Source of the DNA: a virus
Taxonomy: Duplodnaviria; Heunggongvirae; Uroviricota; Caudoviricetes
DNA: 6,627 nt
Reading direction: 5' to 3' (one strand)
Virus record (IMG/VR): IMGVR_UViG_2778261592_000001
Coordinates: 1 to 6,627 of that record
Positions within the stretch are counted from its first letter, which is position 1; each line of letters opens with the position of its first letter. Position numbers and translations under genes: made by a program. Of this stretch, positions 2,148-6,511 are shown piece after piece. The notes under the pieces are model-generated. The model worked only from the letters and a program-made list of their open reading frames with translations, was not told the DNA's origin and made no database searches.

Positions 2148-2336
2148 TTAAAATCCTGCCGGGATTTCGTTATCCTGGTGAATAACTTTATCGACCGGAT
2201 AACAGTTGCCTGGAATTTTCTGTTCGGTTGCTGCGGCCATACATTCCTGCATTGTTCTGTGAACACTGACTGCAATATCAACTGGCTCTCCGGAAACAAG
2301 AAAAACCGTCAGAATAAGTGCAAATGCTGAATTCAT
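2148..2336 (-). CDS. ydfD: YdfD-like small lysis protein with N-terminal hydrophobic segment (62 aa)
   Basis: MNSAFALILTVFLVSGEPVDIAVSVH... Start at 2336 has AAGGA 8 nt upstream and overlaps the dicB stop as ATGA. The longer track start at 2390 would overlap dicB by 58 nt. Position and size match ydfD of Qin (63 aa in K-12). Confidence 0.75.
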   Translation of the reverse strand: MNSAFALILTVFLVSGEPVDIAVSVHRTMQECMAAATEQKIPGNCYPVDKVIHQDNEIPAGF

Positions 2337-2521
2337 TGCGCACATCCTTTTGGCATCAGACGTAAACGAGCCAGCATTGAAACAATGCATATTTTATTTA
2401 ATAGCTCCCGTTCTTGTTTTCTCTTGTTAATGGCATCTTCAGTAAATACAGGGTTACTGATAGTGACACCAATTTCAAAACAACCTTCAGACGTATTAAC
2501 GTTTGGTAATAACGTTTTCAT
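2333..2521 (-). CDS. dicB: DicB cell-division inhibitor (MinC-activating), 62 aa
   Basis: MKTLLPNVNTSEGCFEIGVTISNPVFTEDAINKRKQERELLNKICIVSMLARLRLMPKGCAQ matches recalled DicB in sequence and length. GAGGA 7 nt upstream of ATG at 2521. Lies 175 nt downstream of DicF, as in K-12. Confidence 0.9.
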   Translation of the reverse strand: MKTLLPNVNTSEGCFEIGVTISNPVFTEDAINKRKQERELLNKICIVSMLARLRLMPKGCAQ

Positions 2522-2690
2522 TATCGCGTCCTCAACAATGAATTTTGTGATGCAGTGCCTGGTGCCTCCAGGTGACGTTAACCAGTTAACAATTAACGCC
2601 GGATACAGAGAATCCACCCATAACACTGTTTTTGGTTTTAACTGTTCCGCGTGCGCTCAGCCGCATTCACCACATCACAAAATTCACTTT

Positions 2691-2733
2691 AAAAAGGGCG
2701 GCAGAGCAGTCACGGAGTAAAACTGATACCGCC
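2691..2733 (-). terminator. Rho-independent terminator forming the DicF 3' end
   Basis: Minus-strand GGCGG (plus 2729-2733) pairs with CCGCC (within plus 2696-2701), followed by a five-U tract (plus 2691-2695). Confidence 0.6.
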
Positions 2734-2748
2734 AAACGTCACCAGAAA
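2696..2748 (-). ncRNA. dicF: DicF small regulatory RNA (53 nt)
   Basis: Minus-strand sequence UUUCUGGUGACGUUUGGCGGUAUCAGUUUUACUCCGUGACUGCUCUGCCGCCC followed by UUUUU (plus 2691-2695) matches recalled DicF exactly. 3' GC-rich stem (GGCGG/CCGCC) plus U-tract forms the intrinsic terminator. Confidence 0.85.
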
Positions 2749-3088
2749 ATTGATAACAGAAGGCGTTGCAGCGGGGTTGTCACTTAAGCGTATGGTCAAC
2801 CTGACAACCCGGTGTCCTCAACGGGGAAGAAATAACCCCTCCATACTTACCGCCGCACCATTTCGCGGGTTGCCACAACCGGAAGCGCACGGTCGACGAA
2901 AAGTTAACGACAGGCTATCTATGAACCAGCTACCTCGCCGTGCGCTTTCGCGTTATGGTCTGACTTTTCAGGGAAATATCCTTTCAGTAAACTGTCAGTG
3001 CCGGATGCTCACCCGCGTCCGGCGCACGCACTCCACCTCACCCGTGGAGAACTACTTAATTACCAACCTTAGCTTCGTTGGTTAGCTA

Positions 3089-3307
3089 TTAACGCGGGTA
3101 TGTAATCATTCTGGCAATGCTTAATGCCGCTGCTTTTTCCAGATTGGTGATATCCTGCTCCAGAGCGGACAGATTTTCAGCCTGCTTAGCCCTGGCTTCA
3201 TTGGCCCATTTCAGATCCTGCGCTGCATTAATTTTCTGGCGCATCCACTCATAAAGTTCATCATCGGTATAGTCTGGTGCGATGATGACGGGTTCTCGTT
3301 TCTGCAT
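3089..3307 (-). CDS. ydfC: YdfC-like hypothetical protein, predicted helical (72 aa)
   Basis: MQKREPVIIAPDYTDDELYEWMRQKINAAQDLKWANEARAKQAENLSALEQD... GAGGAA 5 nt upstream of the ATG. Position and length match ydfC in the Qin dicB operon. Confidence 0.8.
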   Translation of the reverse strand: MQKREPVIIAPDYTDDELYEWMRQKINAAQDLKWANEARAKQAENLSALEQDITNLEKAAALSIARMITYPR

Positions 3308-3336
3308 ACTGATTCCTCGCGGTGCTGTTTCGCTTA

Positions 3337-3465
3337 TCAGCCGTTAGATTTTGCCGAGCTGGAAAGCGCCTGTTTAAATTCGTTGAAGCTGAGAGCTTCT
3401 TCGCCGTCGGCAAGACCTTCGAAGTATTCTTCATAAGCCTTTTCCATGATTGTGTCGAAATCCAT
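3337..3465 (-). CDS. ydfB: YdfB-like small acidic protein (42 aa)
   Basis: Hand-translated MDFDTIMEKAYEEYFEGLADGEEALSFNEFKQALSSSAKSNG, ending in tandem stops TGATAA. ATG lies 1 nt after the ydfA stop (TGAtATG), with AGGTGAG upstream. Below the ORF-track size cut-off. Confidence 0.75.
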   Translation of the reverse strand: MDFDTIMEKAYEEYFEGLADGEEALSFNEFKQALSSSAKSNG

Positions 3466-3466
3466 A

Positions 3467-3622
3467 TCACTCACCTGAGTTTCTTTCCAGCCAGCGACGG
3501 GCACCATTTTCGGTTTTAAACGTTTTGCTTTTGGTATACGTCATCGCGGTGAACGTGCCGTCCTGGTTGGGGAACACGCCACATACCAGAGATTCGCTGT
3601 TGCCAAGATCGATAGTATCCAT
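3467..3622 (-). CDS. ydfA: YdfA-like small protein (51 aa)
   Basis: MDTIDLGNSESLVCGVFPNQDGTFTAMTYTKSKTFKTENGARRWLERNSGE. GAGGT 4-5 nt upstream of the ATG at 3622. The longer track ORF (start 3700) would begin inside the predicted promoter, so the internal start is preferred. Confidence 0.75.
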   Translation of the reverse strand: MDTIDLGNSESLVCGVFPNQDGTFTAMTYTKSKTFKTENGARRWLERNSGE

Positions 3623-3699
3623 GCTGACCTCATTTCCCCTTAACGCCGGGGTAGCGGAACTGTTTGCTGAGAACACCGTGCGGTGTCTTGATGCAAGCA

Positions 3700-3719
3700 A
3701 GATTAGCCATGACTAACAA
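3700..3719. promoter_or_regulatory. Operator-like imperfect palindrome, 16/20 match to the 20-bp site at 4246-4265
   Basis: agATTAGCCATGaCTAACAA; overlaps the -10 of the candidate operon promoter. Confidence 0.5.
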
Positions 3720-3728
3720 TTTGGTCAA
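3700..3728 (-). promoter_or_regulatory. Candidate sigma-70 promoter of the ydfABC-dicF-dicB-ydfD operon, overlapped by two operator palindromes
   Basis: Minus strand reads TTGACC (plus 3723-3728), 17-nt spacer, TAATCT (plus 3700-3705), about 80 nt upstream of the ydfA ATG. Confidence 0.5.
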
Positions 3729-3734
3729 GTATTT

Positions 3735-3754
3735 TTGTTTGCCATGGCTAACAT
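3735..3754. promoter_or_regulatory. Operator-like imperfect palindrome, 18/20 match to the 20-bp site at 4246-4265
   Basis: TTGTTtGCCATGGCTAACAt; centre lies 35 bp from the centre of the 3700-3719 site, just upstream of the -35. Confidence 0.55.
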
Positions 3755-3758
3755 TTTG

Positions 3759-3793
3759 GGCAGCCAAAAAGATAACGCATTGATTGCGTTATC
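3759..3793 (-). terminator. Candidate intrinsic terminator at the end of dicA
   Basis: Inverted repeat GATAACGCA (3771-3779) / TGCGTTATC (3785-3793) with 5-nt loop; the dicA stop codon lies in the stem. On the minus strand it is followed by TTTTT (plus 3766-3770). Confidence 0.45.
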
Positions 3794-4196
3794 TTTTGTT
3801 TGTTCGTTGACGGGCTTTTAATAACTCTTCAAAGAGTTTGTTGAAATTTTTTACTCGGGCGCGCATCTCGGTGAGCTGAGCATCCTGTTCTGATTCAGGC
3901 AATGCATTAAAAAGCTCAAGGAGCTCATGTTCTTTGGGGGATAGAGCAACTGGCTCCTCAATAGGTGGTGATGGCTGCTTGTCTTCATCGCCAAATAGAA
4001 TCCATGTTGGCGAGCACTGCAGTACTTTGCTGAGGGCAAAAAGATTCTTTCCTGTAGGTTCGCTATCATCCCGCTCCCATTGTGAAACCGATACGTGAGA
4101 AATTTTCAGGACTTTAGCAAGAGACCTTTGGGTGTATTTGAGGTTTTTTCGGCGATATCTAATGCGTTCGCCAATGGTTAAATTTTTTGTATCCAT
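3789..4196 (-). CDS. dicA: DicA, CI-like HTH (XRE family) prophage repressor, 135 aa
   Basis: MDTKNLTIGERIRYRRKNLKYTQRSLAKVLKISHVSVSQWERDDSEPTGKNLFALSKVLQCSPTWILFG... near-identical to recalled K-12 DicA. Divergent from the Cro-like gene. No obvious Shine-Dalgarno. Confidence 0.9.
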   Translation of the reverse strand: MDTKNLTIGERIRYRRKNLKYTQRSLAKVLKISHVSVSQWERDDSEPTGKNLFALSKVLQCSPTWILFGDEDKQPSPPIEEPVALSPKEHELLELFNALPESEQDAQLTEMRARVKNFNKLFEELLKARQRTNKR

Positions 4197-4218
4197 AGTT
4201 AGCTAATGCTAAATCTTA

Positions 4219-4247
4219 TTGACTATGTTTTTGTTAACATCTATTTT
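4219..4247 (+). promoter_or_regulatory. Candidate sigma-70 promoter for dicC
   Basis: TTGACT (4219-4224), 17-nt spacer, TATTTT (4242-4247); the 20-bp operator palindrome overlaps the -10 and the predicted transcription start. Confidence 0.5.
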
Positions 4248-4265
4248 GTTAGCCATGGCTAACAA
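4246..4265. promoter_or_regulatory. Perfect 20-bp palindromic operator, candidate DicA binding site
   Basis: TTGTTAGCCATGGCTAACAA is its own reverse complement. Located in the dicA-dicC intergenic region; two degenerate copies lie upstream of ydfA. Confidence 0.65.
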
Positions 4266-4279
4266 TTAAGGTGCTTTAA

Positions 4280-4510
4280 ATGCTTAAAACTGACGCACTT
4301 TTGTATTTCGGTTCAAAAACAAAACTTGCACAAGCTGCTGGTATTCGTTTGGCTTCGCTTTATAGCTGGAAAGGGGAGCTAGTACCTGAAGGTCGCGCGA
4401 TGCGCCTGCAAGAGGCATCCGGCGGGGAACTTCAGTACGACCCCAAAGTTTATGACGAATATCGTAAGGCAAAGCGGGCGGGGCGGTTGAACAATGAAAA
4501 TCACCCCTGA
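4280..4510 (+). CDS. dicC: DicC, Cro-like regulator, 76 aa
   Basis: MLKTDALLYFGSKTKLAQAAGIRLASLYSWKGELVPEGRAMRLQEASGGELQYDPKVYDEYRKAKRAGRLNNENHP matches recalled DicC. TAAGG 8 nt upstream of the ATG. Confidence 0.9.
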   Translation: MLKTDALLYFGSKTKLAQAAGIRLASLYSWKGELVPEGRAMRLQEASGGELQYDPKVYDEYRKAKRAGRLNNENHP

Positions 4511-5045
4511 ACAGGTTTGTGAGGCTCTGGATGCCTGGGTGTGCCGACCAGGAATGACACAGGAACAGGCGACGATATTAATCACGGAAGCATTCTGGGC
4601 TCTGAAAGAACGCCCGAACATCGATGTTCAACGCATCACGTTTAATGATGGCGAGGTTGATCAACGGGCACTGGGCGTTAACCGGGTGAAGATATTCGAA
4701 CGCTGGAAAGCTATCGACACCAGGGATAAGCGGAAAAAATTCACGGCGCTGATTCCGGCAATTATGGAGGCTATCCGAATTAGTGATTTCAGGTTGTATC
4801 GTGAGATCAGTGATGGAAAAAGCATTACGTACATGATCGCCGGATTAAACAAAGAATATGGCGATGTGGTGGAGTCCGGGCTGCTTTTTGCGGATCCATC
4901 TGTTGTGGAACGTGAGACTGACGAGCTTATAGAAAAAGCTATTGCTTTCAAGCATGCGTATCGTCAGCAGTATCAATATTACTTTGCAGATAAACAAATA
5001 TCTGCCAGGGGTTCGTATGAGTATCGATGCACTACGATGGGCTAA
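4494..5045 (+). CDS. YdaT-like (CII-analog family) protein, 183 aa; intact counterpart of the K-12 ydfX remnant
   Basis: Complete ORF starting 17 nt before the dicC stop. Begins MKI... and has the motif KFTALIPAIMEAI, resembling the KLIPAILAIL region I recall in Rac YdaT. Same position (after the cro-like gene) as ydaT in Rac-type prophages. Family assignment is from memory only. Confidence 0.55.
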   Translation: MKITPEQVCEALDAWVCRPGMTQEQATILITEAFWALKERPNIDVQRITFNDGEVDQRALGVNRVKIFERWKAIDTRDKRKKFTALIPAIMEAIRISDFRLYREISDGKSITYMIAGLNKEYGDVVESGLLFADPSVVERETDELIEKAIAFKHAYRQQYQYYFADKQISARGSYEYRCTTMG

Positions 5046-6057
5046 AAAGGTGAAAACCGGCAGTTCATCCAGTAAGTCTGTATTGACCTGGCTTGCTGAT
5101 ATGTGCGGTGCCGATTTGTGTGCATACCCGTCTGTATCTGCACTGGCAGAAGTAACGGAACTGAACAAAAAGACTGTGCAGGACAGCTTACGACACCTGA
5201 TGGAGATTGGGTTAATTGTTGATACCGGTGAGAGAAAAGGCAGAACAAAGCAAATTGTGGTGTACCGACTTATCGGTGTAGAAGAAAGTGTTGCCGAGCC
5301 TGAATACACCCAAAAACGGGTGTCTTTAAAGGTGGGTAAAATTGGTGCTGTTAATAAAAACAGTACCGAAAACGGTTATGTTTCAGCACAAAAGAGCCCC
5401 AAAAACGGAACTCTTTGTTGCATGGAAAATAACCAAAGACACCCAAATTTTCCATCAAAGACACCCAAAAACGGATCACGGAACCCAAAGGAACCCAAAG
5501 ATCTAAACCCCACACATAACGCACACGAGAGTGCTCCGATCAGTGAGCAGGAAGTTTTGTCGTTACAGGCAGCCCCCCATGTATTCCTGGATGGCCTGAG
5601 CGAACCCATCGGAAAATTTCCGATGACCGATAGCTGGTATCCGTCACGGGATTTTCGACGACGGGCTGCGTTGTGGGGGATGGCTTTGCCGGAGACAGAA
5701 TTTACACCTGCTGAACTTACCGCATTCCGGGACTACTGGGCAGCGGAGGGGAAAGTGTTTACGCAGATTCAGTGGGAGCAGAAATTCGCCCGTCACGTAA
5801 ATCACGTCAGGGCGCAGGTTAAACCAGTCAGCAAGGGGGTAAACCATGCAGCAGCACCAGGTGGCACCGCATCACGGGCAGTTCAGGAAATTCGGGCAGC
5901 ACGTGAGCAGTGGGAACGTGAAAACGGATTTATCAGCGACGGAAACGGCCTGGAAGCTGTGGGAACTCATGGGGGAGGTTTATTCGAACCGCTGGACCCA
6001 GAAGAACGGGGCCGCACCTTCGAAGCTCTGGATTGCACAGATTGGCGCGATGACTGA
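5017..6057 (+). CDS. Phage replication initiation protein: winged-helix N-terminal domain, low-complexity linker, DnaT-like C-terminal domain (346 aa from chosen start)
   Basis: Start ATG 5017 (MSIDALRWAKKV...) has AGGGG 5 nt upstream and overlaps the upstream gene by 29 nt; the track ORF start at 4942 would overlap by 104 nt. C-terminal segment (WYPSRDFRRRAALWGMALPETEFTPAELTAFRDYWAAEGKVFTQIQWEQKFARHV) resembles DnaT-like ssDNA-binding domains. Occupies the lambda O position upstream of a P-like gene. Confidence 0.7.
   Translation: MSIDALRWAKKVKTGSSSSKSVLTWLADMCGADLCAYPSVSALAEVTELNKKTVQDSLRHLMEIGLIVDTGERKGRTKQIVVYRLIGVEESVAEPEYTQKRVSLKVGKIGAVNKNSTENGYVSAQKSPKNGTLCCMENNQRHPNFPSKTPKNGSRNPKEPKDLNPTHNAHESAPISEQEVLSLQAAPHVFLDGLSEPIGKFPMTDSWYPSRDFRRRAALWGMALPETEFTPAELTAFRDYWAAEGKVFTQIQWEQKFARHVNHVRAQVKPVSKGVNHAAAPGGTASRAVQEIRAAREQWERENGFISDGNGLEAVGTHGGGLFEPLDPEERGRTFEALDCTDWRDD
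5397..5500. repeat. Iteron-like direct repeats (ACCCAAA core), candidate replication origin inside the initiator gene
   Basis: CAAAGACACCCAAA at 5434-5447 and 5456-5469 (22-bp spacing); CCCAAAAACGGA at 5398-5409 and 5464-5475 (66-bp spacing); tandem GGAACCCAAA at 5480-5489 and 5490-5499. A moderately AT-rich stretch lies just upstream (5350-5395). Confidence 0.5.
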
Positions 6058-6511
6058 GCAGCAAATCCGGCAGGTCTGCCGCCAGTGCATGGACCGCTGC
6101 CGGGCGGGTGAAACATGGCCTCCGGACCTGGCTGAGTTTGTGGCGCTGATTTCGGAAAGCGGGGCCAATCCATTTGGCCTGACGGTGGATGCTGTGATGG
6201 AGGAGTATCGCCGCTGGCGTAATGAGTCCTGGCGATATAACGGAAGCGACAAATATCCGTGGCCTCAGCCTGTGCTGTATCACATTTGCCTCGAGATGCG
6301 TTCAAAGGGGATTGAACGCCAGATGACCGAAGGGGAATTAAAACGGCTTGCAGAACGGCAGCTGACGAAATGGGCAAAGCATGTTAGTAACGGCCTGAGC
6401 GTTCCGCCAGTACGGCGACAACTGGCGGCACCAAAACGCCCGTTGGGACCAACGCCAATTGAGTTGCTGAAACAGGAGTATGAACGCCGGAAAGCGGCTG
6501 GTTTTGTCTGA
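6050..6511 (+). CDS. Lambda P-like replication protein (DnaB helicase loader family); start uncertain, in-frame alternatives at 5969 and 5846
   Basis: Resembles recalled lambda P: AMTEQQIRQVCRQ..ETWPPDLAEFVALI vs ITTMEQVNAGMRVARRQ..PFLPSPGQFVAWC, and YPWPQPVLYH..TEGELKRLAERQ vs YPWKSNAHYW..TDAELRRKAADE. ATG 6050 overlaps the upstream stop as ATGACTGA. The frame is open from 5846, which has AAGGGGG 6 nt upstream and would give 221 aa. Confidence 0.7.
   Translation: MTEQQIRQVCRQCMDRCRAGETWPPDLAEFVALISESGANPFGLTVDAVMEEYRRWRNESWRYNGSDKYPWPQPVLYHICLEMRSKGIERQMTEGELKRLAERQLTKWAKHVSNGLSVPPVRRQLAAPKRPLGPTPIELLKQEYERRKAAGFV

Follow-up and report, generated by a model that had tools for sequence, protein, structure and literature searches.

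Palindromic operators shared by the dicC and dicB-operon promoters of a Qin-like prophage, a probable P22-type immunity switch

The Qin-like immunity region and its genes

The stretch of DNA analysed here (the window, 6,627 nucleotides) is the immunity region of a Qin-like lambdoid prophage from E. coli and runs in the orientation opposite to that of K-12. The locus was identified by 88-95% nucleotide identity and synteny with K-12 Qin. When the whole window was compared with complete E. coli genomes the top match was 97%, and the regulatory core was 99.4% identical to that of an O145 strain and ~88% identical to that of K-12. The full region is present in ~850 of the complete genomes of E. 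coli. The ORFs, the alignment and the K-12 annotation together gave the gene order of a Qin-type module, with dicC divergent from dicA, followed by ydfA, ydfB, ydfC, dicF, dicB and ydfD (Table 1). Pfam matched DUF1391 (YdfA) and DicB in the operon, and DicF was the only match in an Rfam scan of the window. Downstream of dicC, on the plus strand, there are ydaT/cII-like, O-like and P-like genes, including one for a YdaT-family protein.

DicA matched the Pfam families HTH_3 (6e-16) and Phage_CI_repr, and its N-terminal domain was aligned with the N-terminal, DNA-binding domain of P22 c2 (E=2e-20). Only HTH families were found by Pfam in this 135-aa protein, Peptidase_S24 being absent; DicA is of the CI family in action, yet it is not a classical SOS-cleavable member. 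It is 93% identical to K-12 DicA, and the recognition helix (SHVSVSQWER) is the same in the DicA proteins of the window, K-12, Citrobacter and Serratia. Because this helix is identical, the experimental data on K-12 DicA can be applied to the allele in the window. DicC matched the Pfam family P22_Cro (1.3e-11) and the P22 Cro structure 1RZS (3e-6), and is 96% identical to K-12 DicC.

The hairpin that overlaps the stop codon of dicA is probably a terminator between dicA and the promoter of the dicB operon (dicBp). K-12 also retains a hairpin, whose inner stem differs. Alignment folding of the ydfA leader for conserved RNA structure gave 1 compensatory pair.

Table 1. Coordinates of the genes, promoters and operator sites in the window
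Feature	Position	Strand	Description
ydfD-like ORF	2148-2390	-	After dicB
dicB operon	2333-3622	-	DicA-repressed; from ORFs, Pfam, Rfam and K-12 synteny
dicB	2333-2521	-	ORF; Pfam DicB
DicF sRNA	2696-2747	-	Rfam DicF, 76.7 bits
ydfC	3089-3307	-	ORF
ydfB	about 3337-3465	-	ORF
ydfA	3467-3622	-	ORF
dicBp	3700-3728	-	PL-like promoter of ydfABC-dicF-dicB-ydfD, read from sequence: TTGACC (3728-3723), 17 bp, TAATCT (3705-3700)
Proximal dicBp operator	3700-3719	- (reading TTGTTAGTCATGGCTAATCT)	OL1-like; about -26 to -7; 16/20 to Oc
Distal dicBp operator	3735-3754	- (reading ATGTTAGCCATGGCAAACAA)	OL2-like; about -61 to -42; 18/20 to Oc
Hairpin	3767-3797		13-bp perfect stem, overlaps dicA stop codon
dicA	3789-4196	-	135-aa CI-like repressor, P22 c2-type HTH N-terminal domain
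Oa	4196-4215		Fourth site, probably Oa (OR3-like); core TTAGCTAATGCTAA at 4199-4212, perfect core match
dicC promoter	4219-4247	+	PR-like, sigma-70-like, from promoter scan: TTGACT (4219-4224), 17 bp, TATTTT (4242-4247)
Om	4221-4240		Degenerate middle operator, probably Om; contains TTGTTAACA (4231-4239); one arm (TTAACA) left
Oc	4246-4265		OR1-like operator; perfect 20-bp palindrome; positional ortholog of K-12 Oc
dicC	4280-4510	+	76-aa Cro-like regulator

Palindromic sites at the two early promoters

In the repeat search, 3700-3719, 3735-3754 and 4246-4265 were grouped as one family with spacings of 35 and 511 bp. The sequence at 4246-4265, TTGTTAGCCATGGCTAACAA, is self-complementary at 20/20 positions. 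The two other members, TTGTTTGCCATGGCTAACAT at 3735-3754 and AGATTAGCCATGACTAACAA at 3700-3719, agree with it at 18 and 16 positions, respectively; their centres (3744.5 and 3709.5) are 35 bp apart, with a further 511 bp to the third centre. The initial annotation had described the perfect palindrome and its 18/20 and 16/20 copies with 35 bp between centres, and these coordinates were correct. A fourth copy of the core, at 4199-4212, had been overlooked. The exact core, TTAG-N6-CTAA, occurs three times in the window (3703, 4199 and 4249), where 0.06 would be expected, and with up to one mismatch allowed there are only four copies in 6.6 kb, the one at 3738 being added. All four of them sit at regulatory positions.

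These numbers bear on whether the sites could merely resemble each other by chance, as A/T-rich promoter sequence. Promoters are generally A/T-rich, and nothing further speaks for this explanation, which is refuted: three 20-mers with four or fewer mismatches were observed, against a mean of 0.003 in 1000 dinucleotide-preserving shuffles, and separate shuffles gave 0 sites at three or fewer mismatches. In addition, the core is confined to the four regulatory positions and the sites are conserved across genera. As in the OR and OL regions of lambdoid phages, the shared dyad-symmetric operators overlap both early promoters and are accompanied by divergent CI-like and Cro-like genes.

The Oc palindrome covers the final 2 bp of the dicC -10 hexamer plus the start region, so that, as in K-12, a 20-bp inverted repeat lies over the -10 and +1. 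For K-12, 5'RACE has located the start of dicC, the -11 A being in register (PMC3441716); by homology with this start, +1 would be at ~4254 and Oc would extend from about -8 to +12. This is in agreement with the overlap of the -10 and start that had been proposed for 4246-4265. In K-12, Oc is 5'-TTGTTAGTCATAACTAACAA (PMC3441716, Yun 2012), which DicA binds in vivo and through which it represses a reporter, and one A-to-C change in an arm abolishes both (PMC3441716). Multicopy Oc clones were lethal unless Oc was mutated, and DicA at Oc was shown to repress dicC and activate dicA (PMC3441716). The DicA site at dicC was also recovered by Reg-Seq (PMC7567609, eLife 2020).

Oc is probably the strongest of the sites because it is the only one in which both arms are consensus, and not because its centre is symmetric. 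The CCATGG centre was found in only 3/85 Oc sequences, TCATAA being the commonest (26/85). The P22 c2 repressor, the nearest solved homolog, makes no contact with the central base pairs, and its affinity drops with increasing G/C content there (PMC4267663). By analogy with P22, where a G/C-rich centre weakens binding, the Oc in the window, with its CCATGG centre, would therefore be among the weaker alleles. The earlier suggestion that the perfect site was probably the tightest is not upheld, as its centre is a minority form of the G/C-rich kind that binds weakest in P22 (PMC4267663).

For the dicB operon, the main promoter has been placed upstream of ydfA (PMC10448788). dicBp was not called in a consensus promoter scan of the window because its -10 matches at 3/6 positions only; the assignment rests on reading of the sequence, conservation of the hexamers and the literature, and the start is predicted near 3693. 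The proximal site (3700-3719) has a perfect TTAG-N6-CTAA core and a degenerate right arm (CTAATCT), and occupies the spacer plus the whole -10 of dicBp, while the distal site (3735-3754) lies upstream of the -35 and stops 6 bp from it. The two had been said to bracket the -35 and -10, which is approximately right for the pair and does not describe the proximal site, which fills the spacer and -10, or the distal one, which ends short of the -35. On at least one side, both carry the full 7-bp arm of Oc, unlike Oa and Om. Their 35-bp spacing is ~3.3 helical turns, in which cooperative phasing is not obvious.

In K-12, deletion of dicA derepressed dicBp 22-fold (PMC10448788, Ragunathan 2023), and deletion of dicC left dicBp activity unaltered (PMC10448788). 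Operators in the dicA-dicC and dicA-dicBp intergenic regions, resembling lambda PR and PL, are attributed to Bejar et al. 1988 in PMC10448788; those at dicBp were predicted in that year. In Reg-Seq, the DicA site for dicB was 'low-evidence' and 'the binding location is unknown' (PMC7567609), and the accessible literature yielded no DicA footprint or EMSA on the dicBp sites. Sequence and conservation suggest that DicA would bind at both 3700-3719 and 3735-3754.

Between dicA and dicC, the fourth site corresponds, judging by its position, probably to the 'Oa' of Bejar et al. Its core adjoins the dicA start codon and its centre is 50 bp from that of Oc. Om lies 25 bp from the centres of both Oa and Oc and keeps one arm only; a tripartite lambdoid OR has three adjacent operators in steps of about 23-26 bp. 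The short TTGTTAACA element had been placed correctly at 4231-4239 and interpreted as two outer half-site arms abutted. The second part is less likely: the O157 prophage PPompW has a full site, TTAGGTTTCTCTAC, at the Om position, in steps of 25 and 26 bp, which suggests that the TTGTTAACA region is a decayed middle operator.

Conservation of the sites was followed in 85 close relatives from IMG/VR and genomes, together with Citrobacter, Serratia rubidaea, PPompW and a Rac-like phage. DicA identity was 75% in Citrobacter and 65% in both Serratia rubidaea and PPompW, the last having a nucleotide identity of 72.6%. A scan of genome contigs with DicA gave only 5 loci; one of them carries the label of a Collinsella MAG, probably through wrong binning of an E. 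coli contig. The three sites were in the same positions in all Qin-type loci, with 35-bp spacing at dicBp in 82/85; the proximal dicBp site was in the same place in 85/85 close relatives, Citrobacter and Serratia, and the arms and layout were retained in the latter two. Om was unchanged in 84/85 and Oa in 83/85 relatives, and both PPompW and the Rac-like phage keep Oa in the form TTAGGTAATTCTAA. In PPompW, the bases flanking the core differ, but the core itself is retained, as are site number and spacing, with two sites 36 bp apart at a PL-like promoter and three between dicA and dicC; TTAG-N6-CTAA had no matches in its 3.9 kb beyond the operator sites. Among 41 unique 1044-bp regions, from dicC to ydfA, the operator arms, positions 10/11, the promoter hexamers, Om and Oa were essentially invariant.

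Also largely refuted is the explanation that the palindromes act as nucleic-acid structure (a cruciform or a hairpin in the dicC mRNA at its 5' end) or that CCATGG is a restriction or methylation target, which is very improbable. Hairpin extrusion from a perfect 20-bp palindrome is conceivable, half of the palindrome falls within +1 to +12 of the dicC mRNA, CCATGG belongs to the type II recognition sequences, and the hypervariable positions are the cytosines and guanines of the centre. However, most alleles are imperfect palindromes, CCATGG is as rare at Oc as described above, and symmetric positions do not covary, which argues against selection on a stem. Moreover, PPompW-type sites keep the arms with unrelated, A/T-rich centres, and in K-12 a single arm substitution is enough to abolish DicA-dependent repression (PMC3441716).

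DicA, DicC and comparison with known switches

Taken together, the sites very likely (probability about 0.9) serve as operators in the P22-like (lambdoid) immunity switch that a Qin-type prophage carries. A DicA dimer would read the outer arms TTGTTAG ... CTAACAA, with TTAG-N6-CTAA as the minimal core, by its c2-type helix-turn-helix. With DicA on Oc, RNA polymerase would be blocked at the promoter of dicC, and transcription of dicA would be stimulated, the latter having been shown in K-12. On 3700-3719 it would occupy the spacer and -10 of dicBp and, together with DicA on 3735-3754, could keep ydfABC-dicF-dicB-ydfD off. DicC would use the same operators, probably favouring Oa by the dicA start, which could result in a bistable switch. 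A DicC-dependent bistable switch has been reported, in which the antirepressor Rem relieves repression of dicBp (PMC10448788). Affinity order, cooperativity or looping among the operators we infer rather than observe.

That one dimeric HTH repressor, DicA, controls both dicC and the dicB operon, as the initial annotation suggested, is the established model for K-12 Qin, with binding at Oc and the 22-fold derepression of dicBp. The regulators named there were incomplete: DicA stands, but DicC was omitted, although ChIP-seq puts DicC peaks on both sides of dicA, with the motif TT(A/C/T)G...C(G/A/T)AA (PMC11430063). The TTAG-N6-CTAA core fits this motif, and DicC represses dicA strongly (PMC11430063). 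In K-12, Om and Oa are operators predicted from sequence that DicA leaves unbound in vivo (PMC3441716); therefore, a core match alone is no guarantee of DicA binding. Because DicA is not bound at Om or Oa and DicC strongly represses dicA, Oa may be an OR3-like, DicC-preferred site that shuts off dicA.

The same observations could be taken to mean that the dicBp palindromes, as well as Oa, are mainly sites for DicC, or for the host TetR-family protein YjdC, which was enriched at the dic locus in ChIP-qPCR (PMC9283627), and that DicA acts on dicBp indirectly or by another sequence. The unlocated dicB site of Reg-Seq (PMC7567609) would be compatible with this. It is nevertheless unlikely, as dicBp responded to deletion of dicA and not to that of dicC (PMC10448788), and the dicBp sites have a full Oc arm that Oa and Om lack. 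In addition, lambdoid repressors and Cro proteins share their operators, so DicC binding is compatible with DicA binding. In the ChIP-seq compendium of PMC12059191, DicA is not mentioned in the main text.

The closest known systems are K-12 Qin and the switches of P22, lambda and CP-933P. The window shares gene order, operator positions (Oc, Om and Oa; Bejar et al. 1986/1988), arms and the 35-bp dicBp spacing with K-12 Qin. It differs in the Oc centre (GCCATGGC in the window and GTCATAAC in K-12) and in the distal dicBp site (GCCATGGCAAACAA and GCTATAGCATACAA, respectively), and it keeps replication genes of the ydaT/cII-like, O-like and P-like kinds, in whose place K-12 carries the ydfX and ydfW remnants.

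With P22 (c2 and Cro; OR1-3 and OL1-3), the likeness extends to the proteins, as the c2 N-terminal alignment includes E44 of c2, equivalent to E46 of DicA, and DicC matches P22 Cro. The operators in both are dyad-symmetric, the outer arms being conserved and the centre variable. However, P22 operators are 18 bp with a 4-bp centre, whereas those in the window measure 20 bp and have a conserved G and C enclosing a 6-bp centre, and DicA lacks the S24 autopeptidase domain. It has no Ala-Gly bond and is relieved by Rem, not by RecA (PMC10448788). Qin-type alleles also have just one fully intact operator between the divergent genes, because Om has decayed.

Features in common with lambda CI/Cro are repressor and Cro genes that diverge, operators on the rightward as well as the leftward early promoter, positive autoregulation from the PR-proximal site, and bistability. 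The sequence and length of the operators are different, and the left promoter has two recognisable sites here compared with three in lambda; no evidence for cooperative tetramers or OL-OR looping was found in the window data. The switch of CP-933P (PaaR2/YdaS/YdaT) likewise belongs to a cryptic lambdoid prophage; its CI analog is non-cleavable, it has analogs of Cro and CII (the latter of YdaT type), and repeated 18-bp palindromes overlap PR, PRM and PL (PMC8630535). Its repressor, PaaR2, and its operator word (GTTTAGTAA half-site) are unrelated to those of the window.

Variation at the operator centres and significance

A separate observation concerns positions 8, 9, 12 and 13 of the three operators (TTGTTAG-YY-AT-RR-CTAACAA), where 12/12 columns vary among the 41 unique regions. 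All 56 changes inferred at these positions were transitions, with 0 transversions, compared with 66% transitions elsewhere, and they were bidirectional (34 GC-to-AT and 22 AT-to-GC). The centre columns had 4.67 parsimony steps/site, ~6.6x the 0.71 at 4-fold degenerate sites, while other operator positions had 0-0.36; when 4-fold sites were resampled, 0/100,000 samples reached 4.67 steps/site. Between pairs of regions that differ at 1-5 of 1044 positions, 21% of the differences were in the 12 centre columns. At positions 12/13, the four combinations are all present in both Oc and the distal dicBp operator; therefore, recurrent change is needed. Around the dicBp operators, bases of the spacers vary too, transversions included.

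Several sources of this variation were considered and rejected or weakened. Quasi-palindrome (hairpin) template switching does not account for it, positions 8/13 and 9/12 being unassociated in any operator (Fisher p > 0.1), and gene conversion among the three operators was not supported, as the same position was not positively correlated across operators. A one-way cytosine deamination hotspot is weakened by the two-way changes. A general rule that operator centres always evolve fast is contradicted by the PPompW-type operators, whose A/T-rich centres show no rate excess and evolve at background (0.067 steps/site, in a low-diversity set).

The places taken by the centres are the dicC start, -15/-14 of dicBp (extended -10; here the G at position 13 is kept in 37/41 regions) and the UP-element zone of dicBp. 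Changes in the centre could therefore act on repressor affinity as well as on promoter strength. A tentative explanation, which we consider possible but doubtful, is that positions 8, 9, 12 and 13 are an evolutionary tuning knob under recurrent selection on the set-point of the switch. DicA could read the centre indirectly, as P22 c2 does, and each transition would add or remove a minor-groove guanine amino group, changing affinity stepwise. Alternatively, these positions could be a mutational hotspot, sequence-specific and working in both directions, which the present data do not distinguish from selection on the set-point. No description of this fast variation was found in the searchable literature.

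As the window is an allelic variant of the known K-12 system, the operator finding itself is already known: as a DicA site Oc is of textbook level, and operators at dicBp had been put forward in 1988. Base-resolution occupancy of the dicBp sites and Oa by DicA or DicC was not found in the accessible literature, and the remaining value lies in determining this occupancy and in the natural allelic series of operator centres, which is a panel for indirect readout and switch tuning in a homolog of P22 c2.

The operators control DicB and DicF, by which cell division is blocked, carbon metabolism is altered and some phages are resisted. The tightness of repression decides whether the cryptic prophage is harmless, toxic or useful. 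If selection on the operator centres is real, an operon that is toxic and defends against phages would have had its set-point re-tuned recurrently.

Variation within the operators and the dicA-dicC intergenic region

When the close relatives were compared, positions 8, 9, 12 and 13 at the operator centre varied in all three operators, namely Oc at the dicC promoter and the proximal and distal sites at dicBp, the promoter of the ydfABC-dicF-dicB operon. The changes were exclusively transitions, found in both directions and at approximately 6.6 times the rate at 4-fold sites, and the operator arms and the central AT showed no change among the same relatives. No such centre hypervariability was seen in the operators of the PPompW type, which form a low-diversity set.

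Besides the operator centres, the sole variable positions of the dicA-dicC intergenic region were 4266-4270, the five bases from Oc to the Shine-Dalgarno sequence of dicC (TTAAG on the + strand), which varied by 1-4 steps per base; the remainder was invariant.

The fourth operator-like site is probably Oa, one of the further operators predicted between dicA and dicC. It was unchanged in 83 of 85 relatives and is also kept in PPompW and in Rac-like prophages. As DicA of K-12 did not bind at Oa (PMC3441716), this may be the OR3-like site, preferred by DicC.

Features of the immunity region and its flanks
Feature	Coordinates	Strand	Remarks
ydfA leader	3620-3693	-	
Operator positions 8, 9, 12, 13	3707, 3708, 3711, 3712; 3742, 3743, 3746, 3747; 4253, 4254, 4257, 4258		hypervariable among close relatives
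Hairpin	3767-3797		perfect 13-bp stem; overlaps dicA stop codon; T-runs either side
Fourth operator-like site, TTAGCTAATGCTAA	4196-4215 (core 4199-4212)		perfect core; adjoins dicA start codon
ORF, YdaT_toxin family	4494-5045		overlaps dicC end
O-like replication gene	4942-6057		after YdaT_toxin-family ORF
P-like replication gene	5846-6511		after O-like gene

Flanks of the immunity module

Thousands of E. coli genomes without this dicA/dicC allele share a near-identical ydfA leader, as does PPompW, and the immunity module therefore has its mosaic boundary precisely where dicBp transcription is predicted to start. Within the leader lie two short conserved elements that resemble hairpins (ACACCG..CGGTGT and CCCC..GGGG), and folding of the alignment gave one compensatory pair.

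K-12 also has a hairpin at the dicA end, but its inner stem differs from that in the window. The window hairpin probably terminates transcription in both directions, shielding dicBp from read-through out of dicA. Downstream of dicC, this prophage has decayed less than Qin of K-12, because the O-like and P-like replication genes follow. YdaT of the related CP-933P prophage is a CII analog rather than a toxin (PMC8630535).

Strain 2D, the closest complete genome, has approximately 650 bp of extra DNA between dicB and ydfC (L002 3190-4412, compared with ~2750-3085 in the window), including two hypothetical genes missing from the window. This length difference is an indel polymorphism within the dicBF operon, near DicF.

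Operators in other loci

A 2.5-kb contig (L006) in an actinobacterial MAG labelled Collinsella sp. carries a 93%-identical dicA and E. coli-type operators, and is most likely a misbinned fragment of an E. coli prophage.

PPompW, the divergent O157 prophage (L003), has a full tripartite operator between dicA and dicC (2102-2166), with centres 25 and 26 bp apart, and two operator sites 36 bp apart at a PL-like promoter (1568-1617). All of these sites share TTAG-N6-CTAA with A/T-rich centres, and PPompW may represent a distinct immunity specificity that makes use of this common core.
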